Source: Desulfobacteraceae bacterium
GTDB lineage: Bacteria > Desulfobacterota > Desulfobacteria > Desulfobacterales > SKZT01
Direction of reading: 5' to 3'
DNA: 64,000 nucleotides
Assembly: GCA_011389745.1 (NCBI GenBank)
Contig: JAABTQ010000001.1
Span: forward strand, 16,497-80,496
The notes under the pieces: generated by a model
Told to the model about the DNA's origin: nothing
Seen by the model: only the letters and a program-made list of their open reading frames with translations
Databases searched by the model: none
Made by a program: the position numbers and the translations under genes
Part shown: positions 2,237 through 57,904 of the stretch, piece by piece
Layout of the letters: each line of letters begins with the position of its first letter
Numbering within the stretch: the first letter of the stretch is position 1

Positions 2237-2908
2237 ATGTTTACGGGAATCATAGAAGGCTTGGGCAACATTTACGCCTTACAACCATCAGGGGAAGGTA
2301 AAAAGCTGACCATTGAGGCTGACTTTGTTCTGGAGGGAGCAAAGGAGGGGGATAGTATTTCGGTAAGCGGCGCTTGTTTGACAGCAGTAGCTATCAGCGA
2401 CAGAAGGTTCACGGTGGATGTTTCCCCGGAGACATTGGCCCGTTCGACTTTCGCACAGGCAAAAACAGGAGACCGGGTTAATATTGAGCGTGCCATGCGC
2501 CTGTCGGATCGACTCGACGGACATCTGGTATCCGGACATATCGATGGTGTCGGTACGATTGTTCACCGGAAAATAAAGTCAAATGCTATCCTGATTACAA
2601 TTGGTGCCCCGGAATCTCTTTGCAGGTTCATGATTGAAAAGGGTTCCGTTGCAGTGGACGGTATCAGCCTGACAATCAACGGATGCACGCAAAACAGCTT
2701 TGAAATAAGTATTATTCCCTATACGTCAAAATTGACAACTATCGGCCTTAAAAATATTGGAACCTATGTGAATATTGAAACCGATATGATCGGAAAATAT
2801 GTCGAAAAATTTTTATCCGGCAGGCAAAACAATGATAAAGACTTTCGAAAATCTGATATCAGCAAGGATTTTCTTGCCAAAGCCGGTTTCTTAAATACAC
2901 AATATTAA
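2237..2908 (+). CDS. ribE: riboflavin synthase
   Basis: [11 protein letters not shown]-terminus and internally duplicated lumazine-binding halves (SVSGACLT / AVDGISLT). Confidence 0.9.
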
Positions 2909-2932
2909 ACAACAAAGGAGTTAGAAAAAAAT

Positions 2933-4147
2933 ATGCCGCTTTTAACGATCGAAGAGGCGATTCGGGAAATAAGACTCGGCCGGATGGTTATTCTTGTGGA
3001 TGATGAAGACCGGGAAAATGAAGGTGACCTGTGCATGGCAGCCGAAAAAGTCACACCCGAGTCCATCAATTTTATGGCAAAATACGGACGGGGACTCATT
3101 TGTCTTTCACTAACCGAGGAAAAAATAAAGGCGTTGGATCTTCCTATGATGGTAGATGATAATACGTCTCCCTTTAAAACAGGATTTACTGTGTCAATCG
3201 AGGCTCGAAAAGGTGTGACCACCGGCATTTCAGCTTTCGACCGGGCGACCACCATATTGACCGCAGTAGCTGATAATGCCAAACCCCATGACCTGGTTCG
3301 CCCCGGACATGTTTTTCCGTTGCGGGCCAAAAAAGGGGGGGTGATGGTGCGAAGCGGCCAGACCGAGGGTTCAGTCGATTTGGCACGTCTGGCAGGACTC
3401 AAACCTTCGGCAGTGATTTGTGAAATCATGGATGAAGACGGCAGCATGGCCAGAATGCCTGCATTGGAAAAAATCAGGGAGGAACATGGTGTTGGTATCT
3501 GTACCATTGCCGATTTGATTGAATATCGAATGAGGACCGAGTCTTTTGTGCACCGTGCCGTTGAGGCAGTGGTTCCCACCGCTCATACCGGAATGTTCAA
3601 GGCTGTTGTTTATGAAAACGATGTTGAAAATCTTCAGCATGTGGCCCTGATCAAGGGGGATATCGACCCATCCAAACCGGTTCTTGTCCGTGTCCATTCG
3701 GAATGCATCACAGGTGATATTTTCGGATCTTTAAGATGTGATTGTGGTGAACAACTTCGCAAAGCCATGGAGATGATCGATAAAGAGGGTTGTGGCGTAC
3801 TCCTTTACATCCGTCAGGAAGGTCGGGGAATTGGTTTGCTCAACAAGCTCAAAGCCTACAATTTACAGGATAAGGGAATGGATCCATTTGAGGCCGGCAC
3901 CGACGCAGGCTTTATGCCGGATCTCAGACATTACGGCATAGGGGCCCAGGTGCTTGTTAACCTAGGTGTTAAAAAAATGAAAGTTTTGACCAACAATCCC
4001 AAAAAGATGGTGGGACTCCAAGGTTATGGTCTCGAGGTTGTGGAACAGGTCCCCATAGAAGTGGAACCTAACGAGTTTAATCGTTGTTATCTGGAATGTA
4101 AAAAACTGAAAATGGGACACTTGCTCAATATTGATGCGAATCCCTGA
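2933..4147 (+). CDS. ribBA: bifunctional 3,4-dihydroxy-2-butanone-4-phosphate synthase / GTP cyclohydrolase II
   Basis: DHBPS motifs [10 protein letters not shown] and RAGHTEG-like ([11 protein letters not shown]), followed by the GCHII zinc site HSECITGD...CDCG. Confidence 0.9.
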
Positions 4148-5178: not shown

Positions 5179-6555
5179 ATGCAGGTCAGAAATATTCTTT
5201 TAAAGCAGGATGAAATGCCTCGCCAGTGGTATAACATCCTTGCAGACATCAAACTGAATCCACCTCTGGGGCCGGATGGTAACCCTGTTAAACCCGAAGA
5301 CCTGGCACCGGTTTTCCCAATGAATCTCATCGAGCAAGAGGTCAGCTCAGAACGCTGGATCGATATTCCCGAAGAGGTTTTAAACATTTATGCCATCTGG
5401 CGTCCATCTCCTCTGGTCAGGGCATACGGTCTTGAGAAAGCTCTCGGAACTCCCGCTAAAATTTACTATAAAAATGAAAGTGTCAGCCCCCCGGGTAGTC
5501 ACAAACCTAACACATCCGTACCTCAGGCTTATTACAACAAGGTTTTTGGTATCAAAAAAATTACCACTGAAACCGGGGCCGGCCAGTGGGGAAGCGCGCT
5601 TTCTTTTGCCTGCGCTCAGTTCGGCATTGAATGTAAAGTATTTATGGTTCGGGTTAGTTTCGATCAGAAACCATACCGCAAATCAATGATGGAAATGTGG
5701 GGCGGAAAATGTGTGGCAAGTCCGAGTACCGAGACCAAAGCGGGTCGGGATGCTTTAGCCCGAGATCCGGATACTCCCGGAAGCCTTGGCATTGCCATCA
5801 GTGAAGCCATTGAAGCAGCGGTCTCGGATCAGACCGGACAAACCCGCTATTCCCTCGGAAGCGTTTTAAACCATGTAATGCTCCATCAGACAATTATCGG
5901 ACTTGAAGCGAAAAAACAACTGGAAATGGTTGGTGACTATCCGGATATCATCATCGGATGCGCCGGCGGCGGAAGCAATTTCGCAGGGCTTGCGTTTCCC
6001 TTTGTGCTTGATAAAATGAACGGAAAACAAATCGAGATCTATCCGGTGGAACCTGCGGCCTGTCCTACCTTAACTCGCGCACCCTTTGTGTACGATCATG
6101 GTGATACCGCCGGATACACCCCGTTGCTTCCAATGCATAGCCTTGGGCATGCGTTTGTTCCTCCCCCAATCCACACAGGAGGACTTCGTTACCATGGCAT
6201 GAGCCCAACCGTCAGTCAGTTGGTGGCGGAAGGACTTTTCGAACCCAAATCTGTAAGCCAACTGGATGCCCTTAAAACAGGTATTACCGTCGCCAGGACG
6301 GAGGGAATCATACCTGCTCCCGAAACTACCCATGCCCTGGCCTATGTTATCCAGGAGGCCGAAAAAGCCAAACAGGAAAGCAAGGAAAAAGTGATTTTGT
6401 TCAACTGGAGCGGGCACGGACTTCTAGACCTAGGTTCTTATGATAAATATTTTACGGGTTCGCTTGAAAATTACATACTATCCGATGATGTGCTTGCGGA
6501 ATCGGAAAAAATATTTGCAAATTATCCTAAACCGCAATTGCTAAAAAGCCGTTAA
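5179..6555 (+). CDS. TrpB-like PLP-dependent enzyme (type-2 tryptophan synthase beta, TrpB2 family)
   Basis: 458 aa. Long TrpB2-type N-terminal extension (PRQWYNI...), a PLP-lysine region [13 protein letters not shown], and [11 protein letters not shown]. No other trp genes are nearby. Confidence 0.75.
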
Positions 6556-31150: not shown

Positions 31151-31226
31151 TCCCCAGTAGCTCAGTCGGTAGAGCAGATGGCTGTTAACCATCGAGTCCG
31201 CGGTTCGAGTCCGTGCTGGGGAGCCA
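31151..31226 (+). tRNA. tRNA-Asn (anticodon GTT), CCA encoded
   Basis: Cloverleaf folded by hand. Acceptor tccccag/ctgggga, D stem gctc/gagc, anticodon stem gatgg/ccatc with loop ctGTTaa, T stem cgcgg/ccgtg with loop ttcgagt, discriminator g, then cca. Confidence 0.95.
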
Positions 31227-31317: not shown

Positions 31318-31470
31318 TCACAAGGCATAAAAACCGCTTTGATTTTCGTAGTATTTAATCCATTTCCTCACCGCATTGTCGCTTACCCCGTATTTCTTGC
31401 CAGTGCCGACATATCCAAATTTTTCAACCTCGCGCTTAAGGACGTCGAATGGAGGACGGTTCGTTCCGCT
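31318..31470 (-). pseudogene. orphan helix-turn-helix ORF remnant
   Basis: A minus-strand frame reads ...PFDVLKREVEKFGYVGTGKKYGVSDNAVRKWIKYYENQSGFYAL*. The HTH-like GVSDNAVRKW is present, there is no start codon, and it overlaps the integrase relic in another frame. Confidence 0.3.
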
Positions 31471-31853
31471 TCACCGACTGAATGCAAATAAATTTCTGTC
31501 CTTTTCGCTTTTGATGACCCAGTATTCTTTGAATCGATCCTATCGGCACACCAAGGTCATCAAGGATTGACGCCTTTAGATGGCGCAATGCGTGGAAACG
31601 AAAATATTTTACATCCGCTTTTTTGCACAGACTTTTCATTATTTTTGTTTCTGTCGTCTTACAGACCTTCTATTTTCTTTGTTCTTTTCGAGACCAATAG
31701 GTGTGTCAAAATATCCAGTTTAGGTCGAGATTAAGTTTCTCTTGGCGAGATTTCATTGTGTCGTATAACTTTTGAACCATTGGAACATCGCAAGGTTCCA
31801 AAATAACATTCTTTCTCTTCCTTGTCCAAAGAGTTACATATAGTACTCCAACT
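31436..31853 (-). pseudogene. tyrosine recombinase (integrase) relic, 5' truncated and frameshifted
   Basis: The minus strand reads ...LWTRKRKNVILEPCDVPMVQKL..., then FHALRHLKASIL (HxxR box) and RILGHQKRK. The catalytic-Tyr block TEIYLH is only found after a 1-nt frame change near 31495. The relic abuts the IS left end at 31854. Confidence 0.6.
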
Positions 31854-33750
31854 TAGTGCCCGAACGAAAACCCATGATTTTGGATTTTTCATTCAAAAAT
31901 TTCAGCCGAAATTTTTGCCGACAAGGAAAATATTGAGTAAAATATAACCAATATCAATCAAAACCATATTGGTTATCAAAAAAATCTATTACCTTGGACC
32001 ATTTTAGGATTTTTATGCGCAACTATCCTGTCGAAGTCCTGAAAACCGGTTGATTACGCTGTTTTTAGCTGTTTTTTCTCCTGGCAGCGCAGCCTTTTGA
32101 TCTCTTTTTGCTGCAATATATGACCGAGAATCTGAATGTTGCGAGCCACAACGGCCAAAGCAACATATCGCTTAAAACCTTTAAGACCATGGTCCGGACA
32201 AACGGCCCAGTCCGTGGTTGCCGAGTGCGCTGATCGAGGACTCAACAGCCGAATGTTTTCGTCTGGCTTGCTTGAATTCTTCGGAATTTTCGATCTCTTT
32301 GTTTATAGCCGAAAGCCGTCCCTTTCTGGGAAGCACAACCTTGTCAAGCAGGTTTGCCAGTTCTTTCTGGTTGTACGGGCTGTGAAATCCCTTGTCAAAA
32401 CTGCATGTTTGAAATCAGGTAATCGACGCTGCGTTTCTTTGATCAGGGAAACGGCAATTTTATCATCGGTTTCATTGCGCATCACATGATGGTGCAAAAT
32501 AAATCCGTACTGATCTTTGACAATACAAATCTTTAAACCAAGCTCCACCGGAACACCGGCTTTGCCCTTGCTGATCCACTCCGTGTGTTGTTCAAAAAGC
32601 GAAAACACCTTTTCGTGATGCGCAATACTTTCCCCGTGGACAACTCTTCTGCGAATCTGATCGATCTGCCTTTCGGCATGAAAGATGTATGCCTTCACCT
32701 CTTCTATTTTCAACTGGGCTATGATGTCGGCTGTCGGAAGGCAAAGACAAGTTTGCCGGATTTTATCAACGTAACATTGAGCCAAATCGATATATTCATT
32801 GTGAGCGGCAATGATCAGTTGCTCTCTTTGGGCTTTTTTTGCCTCATCCTTTGATGAGGAGCGCTTTAACTGTTGAGCTCTCCGGTAAAAGCGTTTTGCC
32901 TTACGGATGTGGTGGTTGCCCTGACGCCAATCGGAAATACTTACGGAACAACAAATTCGCATGGTCAGAGTGATCATTTTGCGTATGGCATCAAAAAGCA
33001 GATTGATATCAGTTGGGAAATGCACATCGGTTTTGGTAACAAAAGAGTCACAACTTCCGGTTAATTTTTCCTCTTTTTTTTACCGACCACCTGATGGCCG
33101 TATTTGACGACAATCTGATTGATTTTGTCCAATACCTCCGGGGTAAACAATGATATATTGTCCTTGAGCGTTTGCAGACCATATTGATAATCATCATCCA
33201 TCATGCCATGGCCGAGCATTTGTCGGAGCTTTTTATGATTATTGGCAATATCATGGAGTTTATCATAATTCCAGTTGCAGATCAGCCTCAGGGTACCCAG
33301 CACAAATATTTTCCACAAATCCATGCCGTTGCGGCCATTTTGGGTATCAACATGAGGCGGGACAATCCCGGCTAAAACCTCAAACACCTGCTCGCGCAGT
33401 TTCCGGTCACAATATATGGCCTGAAGCCCCATAAGTAATTTTGGAGTTTCATCTCTTGAACGCAGATCGAACTTTATGTCAGCAATTGCTTTTTCGCCAA
33501 TTTTCATTTGCATATTGATAATTTTTCGCATATTTTTTCCCGAAGATTTTGTTTGGCCAGGTGGTTTTTGTATAAGCCCAAAATGAACAATTTATTTTTG
33601 CCGAATAATTTCGGGATATTATATCATAAGCTAATGATAAGTAAAGCAATAAATTGGGTATAGTAGTAATTTTTTTTTATAAATCTTCAATCGAAAATAA
33701 ACGCATAACCGCTTGTTATTTTATGCTATACTTGTTTTCGTTCAGGCACT
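31854..33750 (-). mobile_element. insertion sequence (about 1.9 kb) with 18-bp terminal inverted repeats
   Basis: IRL tagtgcccgaacgaaaac (31854-31871) and IRR gttttcgttcaggcacta (33733-33750) match 17/18. A DDE-type transposase is encoded inside on the minus strand. No clear target-site duplication was seen. Confidence 0.75.
32054..33531 (-). pseudogene. IS transposase (IS5/IS1182/ISNCY-like DDE family) split over three frames
   Basis: The three pieces are 33531-33061, 33058-32303 and about 32405-32054. Conserved blocks are CDSFVTKTDVHFPTDINLLFDA, SFDKGFHSPYNQ and RRKHSAVESSISALGNHGLGRCPDHGLKGF. Both junctions are -1 shifts. Confidence 0.7.
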
Positions 33751-44684: not shown

Positions 44685-45409
44685 GATTTTTAATGCCTCT
44701 TTAAAATGGCCATAGGCCTATCAACCAAGCAATGTTTAATGGGTATTTATTGACGACTATAAACTTAAATCCGACTCACCGCAACCCTCATGATATCCAA
44801 AACATCAAATCCCGTTACATCTTTTGATCACTTTTTATTCCAGATTCCGGCCTTTACCACCCTTTTTATGAAGCCTTGCTCCCTGAGTGTTTTACTGCAA
44901 ATTTTTTCAGGTTCTGCCGGGATGCCTCCGGTTTGCATAAAGCCTATAAACCTCGGACAAATCTACAAGTTCTTGTATGTATCGCACTCTGGAAGACCTT
45001 CTTTTGCGCATCAATAACCAAGAAATCAAGATCCCTTAATAATTTTTCGTGAAGAGCATAACTTTCAGACATGATCCAAGGTGAGCGGGTGCGGTATTCA
45101 AAACCGCACCCGGAAACCGGTGGGCCGCTTTGAAGCGGAAAATTCAATAGGATGGATAAAGTAATTTACTTAAAGGTGCAGAAGATCGACTACAAAAGCA
45201 AATCCTCGCATTATCTAATCCGGAGGTTTGCTCTTAAGAAACAACAACAACAATCAGGAAATTTTTTGGCTTCCTTTGTAGACTTATATCGAAATCACAT
45301 GTTAGGCGCCAAAAAATTTAAAGAGTTCGTTTATCTGAGGTTATCCCAAAAGTCAAGATAAATTTTGGGAAATAAAAAATATATTGAACCAGACAGTCCA
45401 AGGTTCTTT

Positions 45410-45488
45410 GTCATGCCGGACTTGCTCGGGCATCCAGAAAAACCAGCTTCTTGAATCCACCTGGATTCCGGCCTCCGCTGGAATGACG
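45410..45488. repeat. pair of inverted REP-like hairpin elements
   Basis: The first copy is gtcatgccggacttgctcgggcatccag. A 23-nt spacer separates it from the second copy, ctggattccggcctccgctggaatgac(g). The second copy is the reverse orientation of the 24408-24436 element. Confidence 0.65.
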
Positions 45489-45493
45489 ATACA

Positions 45494-45616
45494 AAAAGAA
45501 GGATTTTCATGCAGGATTTCAATCAGTTGTTCGGCTTTTGGACGCAAACCGGCGGCGCATAGCTTTTTGGCGTCTCTTTGGGCCTGTTTTGTGAAAACGA
45601 CCTGCCACATTATCAA
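45494..45616 (-). pseudogene. Txe/YoeB-family toxin relic (N-terminal half only)
   Basis: MWQVVFTKQAQRDAKKLCAAGLRPKAEQLIEILHENPSF matches the N-terminal half of Txe/YoeB-type toxins as I recall them. The frame then runs into the hairpin repeat (translated ...VIPAEAGIQ...). No antitoxin gene fits upstream. Confidence 0.5.
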
Positions 45617-45774
45617 TCAAGTTCCCGGGTACCTCAAAAAAAATCATGCATGATCGACAACCTTTCTTGCACCCTTAGAGGGAATATGCGAACCTTATAA
45701 AAACAGGCTTCCAATTCGCTCGGAACCTCAAGTACCATCCTGGAGCACCAAATGATGATATCGGCAAATTTCCC

Positions 45775-48714
45775 ATGGGTATGACGATGGATTACAAGGA
45801 ATTACTCGAAAAATATAATATACTTTTGGAGGAAGCAGATCGCTTAACAAAAGAAAACATTCAATTGAAAGCACAACTTGGACTATCGAAATCAGAGCTT
45901 TCCCGAAATACTGCCTCTGCAATAAATTCAGAAAAATGTATACCTGACGATAAACCGACAGACAGAAACTGTTTTTCAGATGTGGACAGCCAATCGGATA
46001 CTATCTCCAAGATCGGTCTGTTCAAGTCACTTTTCAAAGGCCGTGATGATGTCTACGCGAAACGATGGGAAAATAAGAATAAGGGGACATCGGGTTATTC
46101 ACCTGTTTGTCTGAATCAGTGGCAAACAGGGATATGCGGCAAACCAAAAATGTCCTGTTCCAAATGCGAACACAAGTTGTATGCCGCTTTGGATAAAGAT
46201 GTCGTTGAGAATCACCTGAGAGGAAATATTGTTGTAGGCATCTATCCAATGCTTCCGGATGAAACGTGCTGTTTTTTGGCAATGGATTTTGACGAAGCAG
46301 ACTGGCAAAATGATATCGCTGTTTTCAGAAATGTTTGCATCGAGTTCAATATTCCTGTTGCTGTCGAACGGTCCCGGTCCGGAAAAGGCGGTCATGTTTG
46401 GTTTTTCTTTGAAAATTGGGTTTCGGCTGCTTTGGCACGCAAATTCGGCACTGCCCTGCTTACCTGTTCCATGAGCAGAAGACATGAAATCCGGTTTAAA
46501 TCATATGACAGGCTGTTTCCCAGTCAGGACACCATGCCCAGAGGTGGTTTAGGAAATTTGATTGCACTGCCCCTGCAAAAAGCGGCAAGAGAAAACGGTA
46601 ACAGCGAATTTACCGATGAAAAATTTCGATCCTATTCTGACCAATGGGCATTCTTGTCCACAATCCAGAAAATATCCGTAAACCGTCTTGAAAATCTCAT
46701 TATGGATCTTTGTCCTGGTCATGAACTGGGAGTTTTAAAAATCGACGAGGAAGAGGAAAAACCCTGGGTATCGAATAAAGAAAAAATCCCACTGCAAAAA
46801 ATTGATTTTCCGAAGCAACTGGACATTGTTAAAGCAAATATGCTTTTTATTCCAAAGGCAATGATTTCCCAAAGGGCGCTGAACAGGTTAAAACGGCTCG
46901 CGTCTTTTAAGAACCCGATGTTTTACAAACAGCAAGCCATGCGTTTACCGACTTATGGGCATTCAAGAGTCGTCTCCTGCGCAGATGAAACCAAAAATTA
47001 CCTGTGTGTGCCAAGAGGATGCGAGTCTGAATTGTCCCATGAACTTGAAGAACTCGGAATTGATATTCGGTTTATTGACAAAACTTATAGCGGGAAATGG
47101 ATTGATGTGGAATTCAACGGACAACTCAGAGATGAACAATCCTTGGCTCTCAGAGCCCTGATGCAGCATGATACCGGAATACTTTCAGGCACAACAGCCT
47201 TTGGTAAAACAATTGTGGCAATTAAGCTGATTGCCGAGAAAAAAGTAAATACCCTGATCCTGGTTGACAAGGTCACACTGCTGTCGCAATGGAAAGAAAA
47301 GCTGTCGGAATTTCTGGTTGTAAATGAACCATTGCCGGAACAGCCTGCTGCCAGAGGCAAGAAAAGGGGACGAAAGAGGGAAATAAGGGTTATCGGTCAA
47401 TTGGGCGCAGGTAAAAATGCGTTAAGCGGTATTGTGGATATTGCCGTAATGCAATCGCTGAGCCGAAAGGGAGAGGTCAAACAATGCGTTAAAAATTACG
47501 GCATGATCATTGCCGATGAATGTCATCATGCTTCAGCATTTACCTATGAACAAATTCTGAAAACCGCCCATGCGAAATATATCTATGGTCTGACCGCCAC
47601 ACCGACAAGGAAAGATGGGCATCATCCGATTCTGTTCATGCATTGCGGTCCCATTCGATATCGGGATAATCCCAAAAAACAAGCGGAGAAGAGACCCTTT
47701 GACCACTATATCGTTCCGCGATTTACCTCTTTAAGGGTTCCTGTGAACAGCGATGAAAATGATCTGTCTATCCAGGATTTATATACCGAAATCATGGATA
47801 ACGACTTCAGGAATCAACAAATTATCGAAGATGTGCTGAAAAATTATCATCAAGGCAGAAACTGCATTGTTCTATCGCTCAGAACCGCCCATGTTGAATT
47901 GCTTGCCAAGAAATTAAAGGAAGAAGTTCCGGATGTCATAACAATGATGGGCGGTATGGGAAAAAAAACAACGCAGGCGGTTTTTCAACACCTCACCGAT
48001 ATTCCTGATGACAAAAATATCATCCTGGTGGCTACCGGTCATTTTATCGGGGAAGGTTTTGACGAGCCACGCCTTGATACGCTGTTTTTAGCCATGCCGA
48101 TATCATGGAAAGGCACGCTGCAGCAATACGCCGGGAGGCTTCACCGGCTGTTCAAAACGAAAAAAGAAGTGCGAATCTATGACTATGTAGATATCCAGGT
48201 AAAGGTGATGGAAAAAATGTATCAAAAACGGTTAAATGGATATGCATCGATGGGATATAAAGCCAAAGGCGAGGAAAACATGAATTCGTCTTTGGATATC
48301 ATTTTTAATAAAGATAATTTTTTACCGATTTTCAATCAGGATATCCTTTCCGCTAAAAAAGAGATTGTCATCGTAAGCCCGTTTGTCAGGAAAAAACGCA
48401 CCCACCAAATGATGCAACACCTGAAAATCCAAACCGCCAAAAATATCCGCGTTATAGCCGTAACCCGGCCTAAAGAGGATTTTACACCGAAAGATCATGC
48501 CGCCTTGCAAAATACGCTGAACCTGCTGACAAGTAACGGAGTAAGTATCGTTTTTAAATCAAATATCCACCAGAAATTTGCAATCATGGATCAAACGGTT
48601 GTGTGGTATGGCAGCATCAATCTTTTAAGCTATGGAGGCGCACAGGAAAGCATCATGCGAATTGAAAGTTCCAATATTGCGAATGAATTAATGAAAAGCA
48701 TGGGAGGTGCATAA
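45775..48714 (+). CDS. fusion protein: coiled-coil + Cys cluster + AEP primase-polymerase + SF2 (DEAH, ResIII-like) helicase + PLD-family (HKD) nuclease
   Basis: AEP motifs LAMDFDEADW (DxD 46285-46293) and RSGKGGHVWFFF (46381-46401). Helicase Walker A GTTAFGKT (47188-47211), DECH (47515-47526), GLTATP and QQYAGRLHR. C-terminal HQKFAIMD...GSINL (HxKxxxxD 48568-48591). The true start may be ATG 45784 or 45790. Confidence 0.8.
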   Translation: MGMTMDYKELLEKYNILLEEADRLTKENIQLKAQLGLSKSELSRNTASAINSEKCIPDDKPTDRNCFSDVDSQSDTISKIGLFKSLFKGRDDVYAKRWENKNKGTSGYSPVCLNQWQTGICGKPKMSCSKCEHKLYAALDKDVVENHLRGNIVVGIYPMLPDETCCFLAMDFDEADWQNDIAVFRNVCIEFNIPVAVERSRSGKGGHVWFFFENWVSAALARKFGTALLTCSMSRRHEIRFKSYDRLFPSQDTMPRGGLGNLIALPLQKAARENGNSEFTDEKFRSYSDQWAFLSTIQKISVNRLENLIMDLCPGHELGVLKIDEEEEKPWVSNKEKIPLQKIDFPKQLDIVKANMLFIPKAMISQRALNRLKRLASFKNPMFYKQQAMRLPTYGHSRVVSCADETKNYLCVPRGCESELSHELEELGIDIRFIDKTYSGKWIDVEFNGQLRDEQSLALRALMQHDTGILSGTTAFGKTIVAIKLIAEKKVNTLILVDKVTLLSQWKEKLSEFLVVNEPLPEQPAARGKKRGRKREIRVIGQLGAGKNALSGIVDIAVMQSLSRKGEVKQCVKNYGMIIADECHHASAFTYEQILKTAHAKYIYGLTATPTRKDGHHPILFMHCGPIRYRDNPKKQAEKRPFDHYIVPRFTSLRVPVNSDENDLSIQDLYTEIMDNDFRNQQIIEDVLKNYHQGRNCIVLSLRTAHVELLAKKLKEEVPDVITMMGGMGKKTTQAVFQHLTDIPDDKNIILVATGHFIGEGFDEPRLDTLFLAMPISWKGTLQQYAGRLHRLFKTKKEVRIYDYVDIQVKVMEKMYQKRLNGYASMGYKAKGEENMNSSLDIIFNKDNFLPIFNQDILSAKKEIVIVSPFVRKKRTHQMMQHLKIQTAKNIRVIAVTRPKEDFTPKDHAALQNTLNLLTSNGVSIVFKSNIHQKFAIMDQTVVWYGSINLLSYGGAQESIMRIESSNIANELMKSMGGA

Positions 48715-48925
48715 CCTCGCATATGGGTCGTTAGTGTATGGAATTGGGATTGAATGTGGGAAGGAATTTGAATCATATTCGAAGTTATCCGATTGCGATA
48801 TATTAGAATAAAATTCATGTTATCCATGTGGAGAAATCAGAAATGATCAAGATATTTCTTGTGAATCTATTTTTTTTAAAGTAATTTATCAGAAACTTTA
48901 TAATAACTTGTTCGGCAAGCAAGAA

Positions 48926-49231
48926 ATGATCGAGTCTCGGAACTGGAAAGAAGAGAATCAGCGGATAGCTCAAGGTCTGCAGAAGGTTGCTCGGCCGCCT
49001 CGCTGGAGTGAGCGGGCATACTGCATTCTTGAGAGAGACCTCATGCTGAGCTCCTTTATGCTTTGGAGCCTTATCGAACTGCACAAGGTTTCGCGGCGAA
49101 CCAGTGACCAGATATTGTGCGTATTCTCATACAAGGTGGTTGGAAAGAACGTCAATCGACTGAACGGGCATCACATCTGGGATCTCTACGATATGGAGCA
49201 AGAACGACTAGAACAAAAGAAGCCTTTGTAG
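48926..49231 (+). CDS. hypothetical protein (possible cassette ORF)
   Basis: Longest ORF in this segment, with the same orientation as the downstream attC-like site. Antisense ORFs compete for the same DNA. No motif recognised. Confidence 0.25.
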   Translation: MIESRNWKEENQRIAQGLQKVARPPRWSERAYCILERDLMLSSFMLWSLIELHKVSRRTSDQILCVFSYKVVGKNVNRLNGHHIWDLYDMEQERLEQKKPL

Positions 49232-49283
49232 GTCGCATCAGTTTATTCATGCGTATACAAGTTTTTTTGAAAAAGACGAGAGC

Positions 49284-49457
49284 ATGAACTGGAGCGATGT
49301 TTTTGTGGTTGCGGATTTCGACAGAAAAGATTGCATCTGGCGCGTTCCCGTTGTGGAAATTCGTAGGTTGTTCCTGATGGCGGCAGGTGATTACCCGCAC
49401 GTAACCCGAATGGTGTTCAACGGAAAGAAGGGCGATTACGACATTGAGACGAACTGA
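49284..49457 (+). CDS. small hypothetical protein (57 aa)
   Basis: ATG-to-TGA ORF MNWSDVFVVADFDRKDCIWRVPVVEIRRLF..., ending 20 nt before the attC-like site. It is below the ORF-track length cutoff. Confidence 0.3.
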   Translation: MNWSDVFVVADFDRKDCIWRVPVVEIRRLFLMAAGDYPHVTRMVFNGKKGDYDIETN

Positions 49458-49476
49458 ATTGCGGTTGCGCAAGAAT

Positions 49477-49548
49477 GCCGAACAAAGCGCTCCAACCGAC
49501 CGCTCAACCGCTGCGCGGTCTCGCGTCGGCTGAGCGCTAGCGTTCGCC
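49477..49548 (+). other. attC-like integron recombination site (72 bp)
   Basis: The site reads GCCGAAC-aaagcgctccaaccgac...gtcggctgagcgct-agc-GTTCGCC. It is an imperfect palindrome with unpaired bases. The left end resembles the class-1 attC left arm (RYYYAAC...CAAGCCGAC), and the right end has a GTT core. Confidence 0.6.
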
Positions 49549-49569
49549 GGATTAAAAAGGTAAACTAAA

Positions 49570-49830
49570 ATGCCTGAGATCAGTAGGTTTTATGGTATAA
49601 TCATTGCTATGTTTTTCGATGATCACAACCCGCCGCATTTTCATGCACGGTATGGCGGGGAGAAGGTGGCAATAGAAATAGATTCACTTCGGATTCTGGA
49701 AGGTCATTTTTCGCCCCGTGCGTTAGGTCTTGTAATCGAATGGGCCGTTCAGCACAGGGATGAGCTTCGACAAAACTGGGAATTAGCGAAAATCAATCAG
49801 CCACCAAATAAAATTGAACCGTTGAAATAA
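49570..49830 (+). CDS. DUF4160 family protein
   Basis: MPEISRFYGIIIAMFFDDHNPPHFHARYG is the DUF4160 signature. Confidence 0.8.
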   Translation: MPEISRFYGIIIAMFFDDHNPPHFHARYGGEKVAIEIDSLRILEGHFSPRALGLVIEWAVQHRDELRQNWELAKINQPPNKIEPLK

Positions 49831-49842
49831 GGGAGGTGAGTC

Positions 49843-50154
49843 ATGCTAAGGGATGTAATCTCAGCAAATTATAAGGGCGAATATAAAATTGAAATAATAT
49901 TTGAGGATGGTGCCTCCGGGATTGTCGATTTCTCAAAATATTTACTTGAAGGCGGGGTATTTGATAAATTCAAGGATGTTGAATTTTTCAAGAACTTTAA
50001 AATTAATGAGGAACTCGGAGTACTGACCTGGGGAGATGAAATCGATATTGCACCGGAAACACTTTATTCTGAGGCAACGAACTCGCCTCTGCCTGAATGG
50101 ATGAATTCACAGCAAGGTTCGCTGGCGAACATGTCGCTTCAGCCGACCTCGTAA
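49843..50154 (+). CDS. DUF2442 family protein
   Basis: KIEIIFEDGASGIVDF...GVLTWGDEIDIAPETLY pattern of DUF2442. It is the usual partner of DUF4160. Confidence 0.8.
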   Translation: MLRDVISANYKGEYKIEIIFEDGASGIVDFSKYLLEGGVFDKFKDVEFFKNFKINEELGVLTWGDEIDIAPETLYSEATNSPLPEWMNSQQGSLANMSLQPTS

Positions 50155-50181
50155 ACTCGGCGGTTGAGCTTTTCGTTATGC
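50124..50181 (+). other. attC-like integron recombination site (58 bp)
   Basis: The site reads GGCGAAC-atgtcgcttcagccgacctcg-taaa-ctcggcggttgagc-ttttc-GTTATGC. It has the same architecture as 49477-49548 and overlaps the 3' end of the DUF2442 ORF. Confidence 0.55.
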
Positions 50182-50228
50182 GCTACTACTAAAGAAATGA
50201 TTCAGAATTTAGGAAAGGGAGTTCTACC

Positions 50229-50750
50229 ATGTTCATTGCTGAGCCGACACTGGATGTATTTCTCCGAGGGCTGGTCCTGACCTCACTTGCCATGGTCTGG
50301 GTTGTGATGCTTGTGCGCGTGAATGGGTTAAGGTCGTTTTCGAAAATGACGAATTTCGACTTTGTTATGACGGTGGCGGTGGGGTCTTTGCTTGCGGGCG
50401 CGAGCCAATCAACAAATTGGAATGCCTTCGCACAAACGCTTTCAGCCATGGCTACCTTGTTCCTCGTACAATATCTGTCCGCGCGGCTCCGCAAAGCTTC
50501 AAACACGTTCAAAACGCTTGTGCAAAACAGTCCAGTCGTGCTGATGCGCGACGGAGTGATAATCCACGAGGCGCTTACCAATACACGCGTCGCAAAAGAC
50601 GATCTGATCGCCAAGCTTCGCGAGGCAAACGTTCTTGACCTGTCTCAGGTTCGCGCGGTTATACTGGAAACGACTGGCGATGTTTCGGTGCTTCACGGGG
50701 ATGTGTGCTCAGAGGAATTGTTGCAGGGAACCAAGCGCATCGATCGGTAG
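50229..50750 (+). CDS. DUF421 (YetF-like) membrane protein
   Basis: Two to three N-terminal TM helices, then ...LVQNSPVVLMRDGVIIHEALTNTRVAKDDLIAKLREANV..., typical of YetF/DUF421. AAAGGGAG RBS. Confidence 0.7.
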   Translation: MFIAEPTLDVFLRGLVLTSLAMVWVVMLVRVNGLRSFSKMTNFDFVMTVAVGSLLAGASQSTNWNAFAQTLSAMATLFLVQYLSARLRKASNTFKTLVQNSPVVLMRDGVIIHEALTNTRVAKDDLIAKLREANVLDLSQVRAVILETTGDVSVLHGDVCSEELLQGTKRIDR

Positions 50751-51138
50751 ACAGCAAGTTCCGCCGATGTTCATTCTTCGTTCTTCCCTGCTTACCAGGC
50801 ACGTGCCCAAGCTGAAACAGACAACTTAATTGAGAGAGGCCGGCTACCAAGTCATATCCCAAATCAGCAAAAGACAATACGACATCTAACAATCTTGATA
50901 TCAACATCTCGGAAGGTGAATTCCGGTATTACCCGAAAGAAACAAATGAGTTTCTGAAACATCTGACTTCACATTCTGTTCAGGAACCGAAGATTTATCG
51001 TTGGAAAGTCTTCATAGCAAAACAGAAGATGGAAGGGTATAATGCCTTCGAATATACCGCTGAAGAAACAGGCTGGGTGTTTCTGGTAAATGCCGGCACA
51101 GGCCATGTCCGATAAAGGTAAGACCATAGGAGGAAATT

Positions 51139-52368
51139 ATGAAGCACAAAAAAACAAGGGCGAGGCACGTCATAGTTGCGGTCTTGTTGGTAGCAGCTTT
51201 TGTCGATTTCAACCTCGGCCGGTCAACCTCGGCGGAGGACAGCGAACTCCGGATAAACCCCACAGTGGTGATGTCGGGACTTAGCGACCCGTGGGATCTG
51301 GCGTTTGCGCCCGACGGAGCCATGCTGTTTACTGAAAAATGCCGTGGGCTGTCCGTGCGTACCTCTAACGGGACGGTCCGGCGTTTGTTCGGAACTGCCG
51401 GCGCCGCCCTGGAGGCGGACGACTTTTTCTGCCAGAGCCAAAGCGGCATGCTGGGCGTTGCGCTCGATCCGACGTTTGCCGAAAACCGTAGCGTATACGT
51501 CTATATGGCCTCAAATATGGGCAAGGCCAAAACCAACCGCGTCGTGCGCCTTACCGTTGATGAAGCCTACACCGCCGTTTCCAATCGTAAAGACATTGTC
51601 ACCGACATTGCGTTTAAACAATCCTCCAACCGATGGGGCGGCGCAGGTGCGCATAGCGGCGGCCGCATTCGCTTCAGCCCATTTGACGGTTACCTGTATG
51701 TCACCACCGGTGACAACCACAACGGGCCCCTTCCCCAGGACCTTTCCCGCCTGGGAGGCAAGATATTGCGGATCGACCGCAACGGCAAGGCCCCGAATGG
51801 CAACAATACACCGTCGGGAGGTGATCCTCGCATCTTTACCTATGGACATCGCAATGTGCAGGGCATTGCCTTTCACCCCGGCACCGGCCAACCGTTTGCC
51901 AGTGAACACGGCCCGGGCCATAATGATGAAGTTACGCCGCTTACAGCAGGAGGCAACGGCGGCTGGGACCCCGCACCCACAAAAGGGGTAACATGCCCGA
52001 GCGATTATTGCGGTTATACGTCCAATAAGCCCGACGGCTCACCGACGCCCATGACAGATCTATCCCGATTCCCCGACGCGCTCAAACCATCTTGGAACAA
52101 CCGCGGCGTTTCCGAAGGGATGGGGCCGTGTGTCTTTCTGGAAGGGTCACACTGGAAAGCCTGGGAGGGCCGTCTGGCGGTCGGATTTCTCCGTGGCGCG
52201 CGCATCGAGCTTTTGCAGATGGATGCGATCGGCATGACAACCAAAGCAACCACCGTCCCCGATCTGCCGGCGCAACGTATACGCTCTCTTGTTTTGGGTC
52301 CGGACGGCGCACTTTATGTCGCCACCGACGCCGGCGAAATCTGGCGACTCAAAAGCGCCGGAAAATAA
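51139..52368 (+). CDS. PQQ-dependent sugar (aldose/sorbosone) dehydrogenase, secreted
   Basis: Signal peptide, then beta-propeller motifs GMLGVALDP, TYGHRNVQGIAFHP and EHGPGHNDEV. Visibly G+C-rich. Confidence 0.8.
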   Translation: MKHKKTRARHVIVAVLLVAAFVDFNLGRSTSAEDSELRINPTVVMSGLSDPWDLAFAPDGAMLFTEKCRGLSVRTSNGTVRRLFGTAGAALEADDFFCQSQSGMLGVALDPTFAENRSVYVYMASNMGKAKTNRVVRLTVDEAYTAVSNRKDIVTDIAFKQSSNRWGGAGAHSGGRIRFSPFDGYLYVTTGDNHNGPLPQDLSRLGGKILRIDRNGKAPNGNNTPSGGDPRIFTYGHRNVQGIAFHPGTGQPFASEHGPGHNDEVTPLTAGGNGGWDPAPTKGVTCPSDYCGYTSNKPDGSPTPMTDLSRFPDALKPSWNNRGVSEGMGPCVFLEGSHWKAWEGRLAVGFLRGARIELLQMDAIGMTTKATTVPDLPAQRIRSLVLGPDGALYVATDAGEIWRLKSAGK

Positions 52369-53429: not shown

Positions 53430-53490
53430 TAGATCCAATATGTAATGTTATGCCGCTAGCCTGTACAATTTATTCCACACAAAGCATTAA

Positions 53491-54255
53491 ATGACAGCAA
53501 TGTGGATTGAAACTGAAAACATACGAATCATTTTTGATACAGGGCAAGGAATTGCGTTAGAAAACAACGCCCTGACACTTGGCATCGACCCGGCCGAGGC
53601 CAATATTCTGGTTTTAAGCCATGGCCATTACGATCACACCGGCGGCATTATTCAAGTCCTTCAACAGGCACAGAAAACCGATGTTTATTGCAATCCGGGG
53701 ATTGTATACCCTCGTTATACCATTATCAATGGAACGGCGAAACCGATTCAAATACCTTCCGATTCCATGGAGGCAATTGAGAAATTGTCTGTGGAACATC
53801 TCCACTGGGTACAGCAACCGACTTGGGTGCCTGATAAGATCGGTATAACCGGTCCTATTCCCCGTATGATAAACTGGGAGGACCCGGGGGGACCGTTCTA
53901 TCTCGATCCGGAAGGAAAACGCGCTGACCCGATTGACGATGACCAGGCTCTTTGGGTCCGCACCAACGATGGATTTATTGTTTGTGTTGGCTGCTCCCAT
54001 GCGGGCTTGGTGAACACCTTAAACTACGTTCGGAGCATTAATCATGGATTCAGGCTTTGAGCCATTATTGGGGGCTTTCACTTGATCAACGCAGACCGTG
54101 AACGTCTGGAGAAGACCATGACCGCGTTGCATCTGTTTGAACCGGATATGGTAATTCCTTGCCATTGCACAGGTGAACTTGCTGTTGCGATGCTTCGGGA
54201 TACTTTGGGTGAACGTGTATCGCCGGCCTCTGCCGGGATGACATATTGCTTCTGA
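53491..54255 (+). pseudogene. MBL-fold hydrolase, N-terminally short and interrupted by an in-frame TGA
   Basis: SHGHYDHTGG motif. The frame reads ...SINHGFRL-TGA(54058-54060)-AIIGGFHLINADRERL...PCHCTGE... and continues in the same frame to the stop at 54253-54255. Confidence 0.65.
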
Positions 54256-55360: not shown

Positions 55361-55807
55361 ATGGCGGATTTCGAAGAAAGGTTCCATTCGATTGTTGAAA
55401 AGCTCAAGGAGAACAATCATAAGATCACGCCGCAACGTTTGGCTGTAGCAAAAATTCTGGCTCTCAGCAAAGGGCACCCGAGCGTGGAAGAAATTTATGA
55501 GCAGCTTCAGAAAGATTTTCCAACGATGAGTCTGGCGACAGTGTATCGCAATGTCATCTTGATAAAATCGCTGGGGGAGGTGTTGGAATTGGGGTTTCCG
55601 GACGGCAGGAACCGCTATGACGGCAACAAGCCGTATTCACATCCTCACGTTGTATGCGTCAGGTGTAAAAAAATTTTGGATTGGGATTTTTCAAATCTGA
55701 AAGATATGGCCAAAAGAATTACCGATGAAACCGGCTTTAAGATTCTAAGCCACAGACTCGATTTTTTCGGTATATGCCAGGATTGTCTGGGAAAAAATGC
55801 CGTTTAA
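55361..55807 (+). CDS. Fur-family transcriptional regulator (PerR/Fur-like)
   Basis: ITPQRLAVAKIL winged-helix region and a structural Zn site CVRC...CQDC. It sits directly upstream of the catalase. ATG 55361 was chosen over the ORF-track start 55271, which overlaps the operator. Confidence 0.8.
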   Translation: MADFEERFHSIVEKLKENNHKITPQRLAVAKILALSKGHPSVEEIYEQLQKDFPTMSLATVYRNVILIKSLGEVLELGFPDGRNRYDGNKPYSHPHVVCVRCKKILDWDFSNLKDMAKRITDETGFKILSHRLDFFGICQDCLGKNAV

Positions 55808-55841
55808 TAGATAAATCTGATTTAAAAAAGGAGGTATTTGT

Positions 55842-57296
55842 ATGAAAGACAGCGAGCGAAAACCCACCACCAACGACGCCGGGAACCCCGTATCCAGCGA
55901 CGAGTTTTCCCTTACCGTGGGACCCGACGGCCCCATCCTGCTCCAAGACCACTACCTCATGGAGCAGATGGCCAATTTCAACCGGGAGATGATTCCGGAC
56001 CGCCAGCCCCATGCGAAGGGCTCTGGAGCCTTCGGACACTTCGAGGTGACCCGGGACGTCAGCGCCTACACTAAAGCGGTCTTGTTCCAACCGGACACAA
56101 AGACCGAGGTGCTTGCCCGTTTCTCCACGGTGGCCGGCGAGGCCGGCAGCCCCGACACCTGGCGGGACGTGCGCGGCTTTGCGCTCAAGTTCTACACCAC
56201 CGAGGGCAACTACGACATGGTGGGGAACAATACACCGGTGTTTTTCGTGCGCGATCCCATGAAGTTCCAGCACTTCATTCATACGCAGAAGCGCCGGGCA
56301 GACAACGGCCTGCGCGACCACGACATGCAGTGGGATTTCTGGTCTCTGTCTCCCGAAACGGCCCATCAGGTCACCATCCTGATGAGCGATCGTGGCGTCC
56401 CCAAGAGCTATCGGCATATGAACGGCTACACGAGCCATACCTACATGTGGGTCAATGCCAAAGGCGAGCACTTCTGGGTCAAGTACCACTTCAAGACCGA
56501 CCAGGGCATCGATTTCCTCACCCAGGAAGAGGCCGACCGGATTGCCGGCGAGGACGCCGACTACCACCGCCGGGACCTTTCCGATGCGATCAAGCGGGGG
56601 GACTATCCCAGCTGGACGCTCAAAGTGCAGATTATGCCCTTTAAAGAGGCCGAGAACTACCGGTTCAACCCGTTTGATCTGACCAAGGTCTGGCCCCACG
56701 GCGACTACCCGCCGCAGGAGGTCGGGCGGCTCACCCTGAACCGCAATCCAAGCGATTTTCACACCGAGATCGAGCAGGCAGCCTTCGAGCCGAACAGTTT
56801 CGTGCCCGGGATCGGCCCGAGCCCGGACAAGATGCTGCTGGCCCGTCTGCTTTCCTACGCCGATGCCCACCGGGCACGCCTGGGGGTCAACTACAAGCAG
56901 ATCCCGGTCAACCGGCCGAAGAGCCCGGTGCACAGCTACAGCAAGGGTGGTACGATGCGGATGGAAAACGTCTCCGATCCGGTCTACGCGCCCAACTCCA
57001 AGGGCGGCCCGAAGGCCGACCCTGAGCGGTATCCCGAGAATGCCATCTGGAGTGCCGGCGGCGAGTTCACCCGTGCGGCCTATACCAAGCGTAAAGACGA
57101 TGACGACTGGGGGCAGCCGGGCACCCTGGTGCGGGAGGTCATGGATGACTCCCAGCGCGACCGCCTGGTGTCCAACGTGGTCGGGCACCTGAAGAATAGC
57201 GTGTCCGAACCAGTGCTGGAGCGTGCGTTCGAATACTGGAGAAACATCGACGCGGAGATCGGCGATCGCATTGCCAAGAGCGTAAAAGGAGGCTGA
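55842..57296 (+). CDS. monofunctional heme catalase
   Basis: 484 aa. [38 protein letters not shown], and proximal Tyr region [14 protein letters not shown]. Confidence 0.95.
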
Positions 57297-57904
57297 TCTC
57301 AGCATACTTGTAAGAGATTTCAAGAAATAAAAGCCATCACCTAACACATCACACATAAGGGTTGATCTGACCGGATGATAAAAAGTATCAAATCGACACC
57401 GGTATTTGCCGGTCAGAATCAAACCCGGATTTAACCATCACTTCAGAGCCTTGCAAACCGATTTCTCATAAAAAATTTTGCCTTGATTTTTATTCAGAAT
57501 TATAATAAAAATATAGTTTATTGTTAAATCAATTTATAAGATGATTATTTTTTATAATGATGGGTGCAAAAGCGGTCTTATTCCGTTTTTTGTTGTCCGA
57601 TTGATAAGGGCGGAAAAATATCGATCAAAATGCGTCGAGTCAGGAAGGCAAATGACATTCGCCCGGTTAGGCAAAGTTTAATGCAAGAAGATGGCGAAAT
57701 AAGGACGACAGCTCTGGAAAAAACATGCGATTTTTTATTAACCTTAATGGCATCTTGCAATAATAGCGGCAGGGTGCCTTTTTTGTTTTAAAAGTTCGGA
57801 CTGATTCATTGAAAATAAACCGAAAATCATTTCGCCCTGCGGGTATTTTCGGATAGTCAGACTGAACCAACGTTAGCGGTATAGTAAGGGTGAAGGAGTA
57901 AAAA

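Follow-up and report, generated by a model that had tools for sequence, protein, structure and literature searches.

An integron cassette is a gene unit, either promoter-less or self-contained, with an attC site at its end. attC sites are about 55-140 bp long, and their bottom strand folds into an imperfect hairpin; the tyrosine recombinase IntI recognises this hairpin and cleaves the R' box between G and TT. Cassettes are excised as circles and re-inserted, and their boundaries always lie at this crossover, written G/TT below. Sedentary chromosomal integrons such as the Vibrio superintegron carry self-expressed toxin-antitoxin cassettes, which are thought to stabilise neighbouring cassettes. 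Clusters of attC sites lacking integrases (CALINs) consist of two or more attC sites separated by less than 4 kb, with no integrase gene (intI) nearby, and 95% of them are without a recognisable intI pseudogene in their vicinity (PMC4889954). Integrases also insert cassettes at attG sites of the form GWT, which has been proposed as the origin of single attC sites lacking integrases (SALINs) and of small CALINs (bioRxiv 10.1101/2022.09.11.507474). The toxin-antitoxin system DhiTA, whose domains are DUF4160 and DUF2442, has been validated in Dickeya (PMC8198452). Here we describe a cassette locus in a 64-kb stretch of DNA from a Desulfobacteraceae bacterium (contig JAABTQ010000001.1; "the window" denotes this whole stretch). 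From position 48911 to about 50770 it very probably carries a small integron cassette array with no integrase nearby, that is, a CALIN. An original prediction had called the region an integrase-less cassette array or remnant, and this label is correct: the locus has two attC sites and mobile cassettes, and there is no intI in the 64 kb.

The attC sites were located by means of a covariance model, R1, which combines helices for the R and L boxes with two unpaired positions. R1 was trained on seven attC palindromes of unrelated cassettes in other genomes (three from locus L005 and one each from L021, L023, L006 and L004); the window was excluded. The training loci belong to a set of 80 loci from species-representative genomes, which was retrieved with the DUF2442 protein and in which attC-type palindromes of unrelated cassettes are obvious upstream of the cassette and elsewhere in the flanks. 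A home-made scan for palindromes bounded by AAC and GTT was used solely to collect these training sites; it caught site 1 of the window, missed site 2, and in GC-rich loci returned mostly coding-sequence artefacts. Applied to the window, R1 yielded only two significant matches, both above threshold: 49477-49548 (site 1) with 22.7 bits (E = 1e-3) and 50124-50181 (site 2) with 37 bits (E = 1e-7). Both were recovered at full length on the plus strand, with the end points of the two palindromes that the original prediction had placed there. With filters switched off, no further match above 11 bits was found between 44 and 58 kb.

R1 also recognises attC sites of a different origin. In a class 1 integron of E. 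coli (intI1-dfrA17-aadA5-qacEdelta1; plasmid NZ_CP116988.1) it detected the sites of dfrA17 (19.8 bits) and aadA5 (29.9 bits) at the right intergenic positions and on the right strand. As a negative control, 544 kb of Desulfobacterales-type loci selected by a TOTE gene gave two marginal matches. The 1.02 Mb selected by the cassette protein gave 50 matches, 47 of them on the cassette strand, and these form arrays of two to six sites in L005, L004, L021, L030, L024, L026 and L041. In this site family the L helix is 90% paired, eight of ten pairs show compensatory changes, and two unpaired positions are conserved. The covariation score of the 50 sites is 0.356, compared with 0.035-0.073 for slid partners, and AAC and GTT are retained in 46-48 of 49 members. 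The homologues of site 2 in other genomes score 20-46 bits.

Both palindromes possess the common architecture that had been proposed for them: an R'' box ending in AAC, L'', a loop, L', and an R' box beginning with GTT. Site 1 reads GCCGAAC-AAAGC-GCTCCAACCGACCGC...GCGTCGGCTGAGC-GCTAGC-GTTCGCC; its R'' (49477-49483) and R' (49542-49548) are complementary at six of seven positions. Site 2 reads GGCGAAC-ATGTC-GCTTCAGCCGACC...GGCGGTTGAGC-TTTTC-GTTATGC, and R'' (50124-50130) and R' (50175-50181) are complementary at four of seven. The sites are spaced by 576 bp on the same strand and have the 14-mer CGCTYCARCCGACC in common, of which there is no third exact copy in the window. Their lengths of 72 and 58 bp are inside the known attC range. 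As predicted, each lies at the 3' end of a co-oriented open reading frame (ORF): site 1 begins 20 bp 3' of the stop of a pseudogene, and site 2 covers the last 31 nt of the DUF2442 gene, with the last ten codons inside the site and the stop codon (50152-50154) in its loop. The likeness of the left arms to class 1 attC was likewise borne out (..AACA..CGCTYCARCCGAC here, ..AAC..CGTTCAAGCGGAC in attC_aadA5). When both strands of the 64 kb were scanned, site 1 was by far the most stable palindrome bounded by AAC and GTT. Its bottom strand folds with -26.5 kcal/mol (z = -4.0; none of 200 shuffles was as good) and leaves G, G and T unpaired on the 3' arm, which is the arm occupied by the extrahelical bases of attC. 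Every defining attC feature that could be tested was found at both sites, and they are predicted to be substrates of an integron integrase.

The unit between the two sites, cassette B, encodes a DUF4160 and a DUF2442 protein; the identity of both ORFs as given in the original prediction was confirmed by Pfam (80.4 and 59.5 bits). When cassette B was searched against the 80 loci, nucleotide homology began at 49538-49542 and ended at 50175-50182 in at least 12 of them, with 84-94% identity and with flanks that are all different. These loci include Desulfobacterium sp. N47, Smithella, Desulfonema limicola, Desulfosudis oleivorans and Desulfopila aestuarii, as well as several metagenome-assembled genomes (MAGs) of Desulfobacterales and one of Zhuqueibacterota. 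Upstream of GTTCGCC, each locus has a different sequence, which is often the clear attC of another cassette, and 14 different sequences follow ...TTTTCG/TT. Because homology breaks at the G/TT of sites 1 and 2 and the flanks differ, 49543-50175 is a cassette in the strict sense. Of all the evidence, this mobility with its defined breakpoints weighs most. Furthermore, two metagenome contigs encode an identical DUF2442 protein in other surroundings. The first (L001) is 99% identical up to ...TTTTCGTTA, where an EamA gene follows on the opposite strand; the second (L002) diverges upstream of GTTCGC. The original prediction had proposed to look for the same cassettes in different contexts, and cassette B was found in many, with breakpoints at the GTT cores. 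This is a clear natural case of one predicted toxin-antitoxin cassette that has moved, at 84-99% nucleotide identity, among Desulfobacterales, Syntrophales (Smithella), Desulfobulbales and Zhuqueibacterota.

The link to an integrase is provided by Firmicutes bacterium UBA5766 (L027), where a diverged copy of cassette B (67%) and its attC (45.7 bits with R1) lie in a complete integron. The copy is the second cassette after an integron integrase, behind a HicAB cassette; the integrase scores 381 bits with TIGR02249 (cutoff 265) and is 50% identical to IntI1. Arrays of attC sites are present in relatives, and one of them, that of L027, is accompanied by an integron integrase. Diverged copies of cassette B also occur in Methylomirabilis, Firmicutes, Planctomycetota and a bin labelled Bathyarchaeia. 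The latter, a 7.5-kb contig (L025), contains two identical copies of a 70% DUF4160/DUF2442 cassette (831-1448 and 2700-3317), each with its own attC of 25.3 bits; either cassettes are carried across domains or the contig was binned erroneously. Integrons in Archaea have been reported (PMC9668308).

Cassette A begins at the GTTCGGC core at 48910-48916. The original prediction had pointed to this core, and it is the true left boundary: homology to Methylohalobius crimeensis (L083) starts exactly at 48910 (GTTCGGCAAG) and reaches 49500 with 82% identity, including the left arm of site 1. In L083, a good attC (31.6 bits), one of three sites in an array, has this GTTCGGC as its R' end. The gene of cassette A is inactivated relative to the intact L083 copy by a TAC-to-TAG change at 49229-49231 and, just downstream, by a frameshifting deletion of 2 nt. 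This one gene is represented in the window by two pieces, the ORFs 48926-49231 and 49284-49457. A length of 177 aa is shared by 52 of the 58 homologues listed, and the protein matches no family in Pfam, NCBIfam or PADLOC. The L083 cassette's own attC is truncated after GCCGAACAATGCGCTCCAGCCGAC and adjoins transposase genes (an rve fragment and the IS110 family). As other loci have a helicase or Mrr gene next to this gene, the 177-aa protein was considered as a partner of neighbouring defence genes. This was rejected: in L083 an attC lies between the 177-aa gene and the helicase gene, and the 177-aa gene is therefore a cassette of its own. The L083 array itself (ATXB01000001, 3042-10620) has at least three attC sites, and one interval between them, of about 6 kb, encodes a 1445-aa helicase (AAA_11/AAA_12/DUF3320) together with a DUF4011 protein; it is a defence-like cassette of unusual size.

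Downstream of site 2 follows a block with a YetF/DUF421 gene, which is 93.8% identical to two NCBI assemblies in unrelated contexts (L092, matching window positions 50175-50773, and L093, matching 50174-50755). In the window and in both assemblies it begins at GTTA(T/C)GC, which is site 2's R' core. On the right, the two matches end at different positions (50773 versus 50755). The block is a probable third cassette, C, with a degenerate attC. As read from these alignments, the cassette boundaries fall at G/TT, namely at 48910, 49538-49542 and 50174-50175 for the starts of A, B and the YetF block, with the end of B at 50175-50182, and the breakpoints across genomes mark cassettes A and B as mobile. 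The further GTTATGC at 53447-53453, which had been listed as a recurring core next to a truncated gene, is present, but it is not an attC (no R1 match with filters off; fold z = -1.0). The truncated gene is a metallo-beta-lactamase-fold gene that appears to be split over 53491-54060 and 54082-54255 in different frames, probably a pseudogene; several such fragments lie between 50.8 and 55.2 kb. The coordinates of all features are compiled in Table 1.

Table 1. Features of the cassette array and its immediate surroundings (positions in the window; the slash marks the crossover).
Feature	Position	Strand	Evidence or remark
TOTE conflict-system protein, 979 aa	45775-48714		archaeo-eukaryotic primase, superfamily 2 (SF2) helicase and PLD nuclease domains
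Segment absent from L094, ~2.35 kb	48766-51097		alignment; breakpoints approximate
Promoter-like site (TTTAAA, 18-nt spacer, TATAAT) into first cassette	48875-48904	+	consensus scan, 10/12; pattern match only
Left junction GAAACTTTATAATAACTTG/TT	48892-48912	+	motif ends at crossover G 48910; no attC left arm upstream
Junction motif, search form			GAAACTWTNNAATAACTTGTT
Cassette A	48911-49542	+	from TT after G48910 to G49542; homology to L083
Pseudogene, 177-aa hypothetical protein family	48926-49457	+	nonsense and frameshift versus intact L083 copy
attC site 1 (of cassette A), 72 bp	49477-49548	+	R1 22.7 bits; bottom-strand fold; left arm kept in L083
Cassette B, DhiT/DhiA-like	49543-50175	+	G/TT crossovers of sites 1 and 2; cross-genome homology
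DUF4160 gene, DhiT-like predicted toxin	49570-49830	+	Pfam PF13711 80.4 bits; NCBIfam toxin_DhiT 77.9 bits (cutoff 100)
DUF2442 gene, DhiA-like predicted antitoxin	49843-50154	+	Pfam PF10387 59.5 bits; NCBIfam antitoxin DhiA 30 bits (cutoff 200)
attC site 2 (of cassette B), 58 bp	50124-50181	+	R1 37 bits; homologous sites; G/TT breakpoints
Probable cassette C	50176-50773	+	YetF/DUF421 gene 50229-50750; degenerate attC-like end
Weak attC-like sequence over yetF stop codon	50725-50786	+	R1 10.6 bits, E 0.6 over 14 kb
Start-less 93-codon ORF fragment	50834-51115	+	six-frame translation; right end of inserted segment

In a complete integron, intI and attI adjoin the array. Here, the upstream gene is a TOTE gene, and a tblastn search with IntI1 and the L027 integrase (the IntI1 query was confirmed to be 100% correct) found no intI in the 64-kb window at E <= 1e-3. 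The array is not a complete integron. A trace of a tyrosine recombinase at about 31.5 kb was considered as a lost intI and rejected; it is a short generic piece of the C-terminal part (34 aa, box II), lies next to a tRNA-Asn gene and is 17 kb away. The original prediction had named three outcomes that would speak against it: scores of both sites below the threshold of an attC model, a lack of other attC sites and of intI in the genome and its relatives, and palindromes conserved only as part of flanking coding sequences. As far as tested, none of these was observed.

Several points nevertheless weigh against a cassette array. The fold of site 2 alone is no better than that of shuffled sequences, and the bottom-strand folding that had been proposed as a check thus supports site 1 (z = -4, bulged G/G/T) and not site 2 (z = -0.3). 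Site 2 takes the canonical fold only when AAC and GTT are forced to pair (-5.9 kcal/mol; A and T are then bulged, and one pair is mismatched); it has an A instead of a G as one extrahelical base, and one of its stem pairs is broken by a C-to-T change (GGCGGTTGAGC versus GGCGGCTGAGC in most homologous copies). With regard to the consensus RYYYAAC...GTTRRRY, AAC and GTT are present at both sites, the purine/pyrimidine pattern of the other four positions is followed only partly, and the R' cores GTTCGCC and GTTATGC depart from GTTRRRY. The third attC is not significant (10.6 bits), and its fold is no better than that of shuffles. R1 missed two of four class 1 attC sites (arr-3 and aac(6')-Ib4 of a second integron); the model is specific, and its sensitivity is moderate. 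The absence of an integrase holds for the 64 kb of the window. Finally, the segment that is missing from a close relative (L094, see below) exceeds the cassettes, by about 144 bp at its left end and by about 320 bp at its right end. If one assumed that the palindromes are intrinsic terminators, REP-like repeats or operator palindromes of the toxin-antitoxin genes and not recombination sites, their position at the 3' ends of ORFs and the unremarkable folding energy of site 2 would be accounted for. However, as had been noted originally, neither palindrome is followed by a T-tract, and a scan for terminator-like patterns was also empty at both. A dispersed repeat is contradicted by the shared motif, which occurs only twice in 64 kb. 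Moreover, the breakpoints in a dozen genomes lie exactly at the GTT cores, the model that finds both sites also finds class 1 attC sites, a diverged copy is part of an intI-linked array, and no Rfam family matches the cassette region. The probability of this alternative is negligible, and it is effectively refuted.

How the array came to lie at this position can be addressed by comparison with L094, whose TOTE gene is 97% identical. Its sequence matches window positions 45657-48739 and resumes directly at 51115-52133, which holds a glucose/sorbosone dehydrogenase (GSDH) gene; about 23 unaligned nt lie in between. The extra segment of the window comprises AT-rich DNA (about 144 bp), cassettes A and B, the YetF block and about 320 bp with an ORF fragment, for which no Pfam family and no relatives in metagenome contigs were found. 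The missing segment exceeds the cassettes in size, and insertion by an integrase alone at this position does not account for the indel. The genes from 51139 on (GSDH and beyond) are conserved native neighbours and not cassettes. The GSDH, Zn-peptidase and metallo-beta-lactamase-fold genes had been considered as further cassettes and were rejected; they have no attC, and GSDH directly follows TOTE in L094.

Two origins have to be weighed. An integrase encoded elsewhere might have placed the first cassette at a genomic GWT site downstream of TOTE, after which attC x attC recombination would have added the later ones, giving a two- or three-cassette CALIN de novo. In favour of such a capture at attG, the left junction ...AACTTG/TTCGGC has neither an attC nor an integrase upstream, cassette B follows non-attC-like sequences in L002/L011, L003 and L012, as the YetF unit does in L092, and 1362 of 2961 CALINs have only two cassettes (bioRxiv 10.1101/2022.09.11.507474). 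However, L094 also lacks the 144 bp on the left and the 320 bp on the right, and its empty site is not simply the junction minus the cassettes; in addition, two other genomes share the 21-nt motif that precedes the crossover, which is unexpected for a random GWT site. We therefore consider this origin possible but rather unlikely. Alternatively, the array may be a relic or translocated piece of a larger array that was parted from its integrase by deletion, rearrangement or block transfer. Its left end would then be either an attI-like half-site or the right arm of an attC that is AT-rich and atypical, and its right end a truncated gene. The arrays in L030 and L041 have the junction motif too, both ends consist of truncated or non-cassette sequence (the ORF fragment has no start), signs of decay are present, and the whole 2.35-kb block is the unit of polymorphism versus L094; integrase loss and rearrangement have been listed as origins of CALINs (Cury et al., PMC4889954). 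What speaks against it is that no fragment of an intI pseudogene was found in or near the segment, that no insertion sequence or transposase flanks it within 48.7-51.1 kb, and that nothing in the sequence shows how the block was moved or trimmed. On balance we incline, with some reservation, towards the larger array, because the polymorphic block exceeds the cassettes and the left junction is not anonymous.

By the known biology of integrons, each cassette was excised and inserted by IntI acting on the folded attC bottom strand, and the breakpoints show that these units went through this. The segment, including its non-cassette ends, most likely arrived as a fragment of a larger array and not by cassette-by-cassette capture at this place. 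By now it is probably an inert or decaying relic, and renewed movement would require an integrase encoded elsewhere in the genome. Decay is suggested by the pseudogene in cassette A, the C-to-T change that breaks the stem of site 2, the degenerate state of the third attC and the lack of an integrase close by. The predicted toxin-antitoxin pair may, by a stabilising, addictive effect, contribute to keeping the segment in place. Cassette B in Desulfopila aestuarii (L011) and the metagenome contig L002, and the YetF unit in L092 (GCA_011390335.1), each occur singly right after an ordinary gene, and no attC can be recognised upstream of them; these SALIN-like insertions are compatible with the attG route.

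The motif at the left junction has the form GAAACT-W-T-NN-AATAACTTG/TT and directly precedes the first cassette base in three unrelated genomes. Besides the window (48892-48912), it occurs in L030 (99-118 and 2924-2943) and L041 (about 6462-6484, minus strand); the carriers other than the window are a Nitrospinae MAG and a delta-proteobacterial MAG. In L030, two copies of the form GAAACTATAGAATAACTTG/TT lie inside the array, and their identity to the window ends at the GTT core. In L041, the form GAAACTATTCAATAACTTG/TT stands at the head of a three-attC cluster. The 11-mer AATAACTTGTT has six occurrences in 1.79 Mb, compared with 0.86 expected, each directly before an R'-type cassette core, and a small hairpin, whose loop contains GAAACT, is present at every motif copy. 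R1 does not detect the motif even with filters off, and no integrase was found near its copies. Viral contigs scanned for the motif gave chance-like AT-rich matches only. Speculatively, and with little probability, the motif marks an undescribed class of integron recombination site, either an AT-rich half-site next to a hairpin, which would act as an attI-like docking site without a linked integrase, or a minimal atypical attC. If this were true, cassette arrays could be founded at new loci or brought there in blocks, for instance in a defence-gene neighbourhood like the present one. The number of promoter-like sites in the region, including the one that overlaps the junction (Table 1), is not above the shuffled expectation.

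The neighbour of the array, described in the original prediction as a primase-helicase-nuclease gene, was identified with Pfam as a TOTE-type primase-helicase-PLD conflict gene. Its closest relatives (75-97%) are found in many Desulfobacterales genomes and metagenomes, including Desulfosarcina. The region downstream of TOTE is not a general cassette hotspot, as R1 detected no attC there in 75 TOTE loci. Upstream of the TOTE gene, between it and a P-type ATPase gene, lies an 87-aa ORF (45353-45616, minus strand) with no Pfam match at E <= 1; its N-terminal half reads like a small toxin and its C-terminal half like translated repeat DNA (..IPAEAGIQ..). Farther away, tRNA-Asn (31151-31226) adjoins a C-terminal fragment of a phage-type tyrosine recombinase (about 31400-31700, minus strand), and transposase-like ORFs (32303-33531) occupy a low-GC stretch (33-41% GC, 29-36 kb); this resembles what is left of an integrated element that has no connection with the cassettes. 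A 484-aa ORF at 55842-57296, catalase-like by eye, lies in a 1-kb bin of 61% GC, compared with about 43% around it, which suggests a separate horizontal acquisition; the long antisense ORF at 55737-57422 is probably an artefact of the high GC content.

General knowledge of integrons is not changed by this array; integrase-less cassette clusters are already well known. It can, however, be annotated with confidence as a cassette cluster whose boundaries are known to the base. Further useful results are the wide spread of one predicted toxin-antitoxin cassette across phyla, a strain-level indel and an unexplained junction motif. The indel versus L094 bears on the current question of whether small integrase-less clusters are relics of integrons or insertions outside integrons.

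Compared with the CALINs described previously (PMC4889954), the array agrees in having two significant attC sites on the same strand, co-oriented ORFs and no intI within 4 kb or within the 64 kb, an assignment that is based on R1; like 95% of CALINs, it has no recognisable intI pseudogene nearby. It differs from a typical CALIN in its very small size (two firm sites and a degenerate one), in the pseudogene in one cassette and in the conserved motif at the left end. With SALINs and attG insertions (bioRxiv 10.1101/2022.09.11.507474) it has in common that the cassettes lie outside an integron platform, that the left G/TT is without a recognised attC or attI, and that single copies of these cassette families are found at other places (L011, L092). 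In contrast to such insertions, the indel versus L094 exceeds the cassettes, and the 21-nt junction motif is not predicted by the short GWT consensus. The order of elements, R'', spacer, L'', loop, L', spacer and R', is that of class 1 attC sites (aadA5, dfrA17), and one model recognises the class 1 sites at 20-30 bits and the sites of this array at 23-37 bits. Unlike in class 1, the R' cores depart from GTTRRRY, the cargo is not antibiotic resistance, intI1, attI1 and the 3' conserved segment are missing, and the host belongs to environmental Desulfobacterales.

The gene pair of cassette B resembles DhiT/DhiA of Dickeya dadantii 3937 (PMC8198452) in combining DUF4160 and DUF2442 in a two-gene operon with the toxin gene first, and the DhiT and DhiA models are its best NCBIfam matches. 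The scores are below the curated cutoffs (78 versus 100 and 30 versus 200), which indicates distant relatives and not equivalogs, and the antitoxin has 103 aa, whereas the model has 160 positions. In contrast to the Dickeya pair, that of cassette B, a predicted toxin-antitoxin pair, is packaged as an integron cassette. Compared with the Vibrio superintegron, the array is tiny and, within the 64-kb window, integrase-less; the two are alike in bearing a toxin-antitoxin pair as a cassette within an array.

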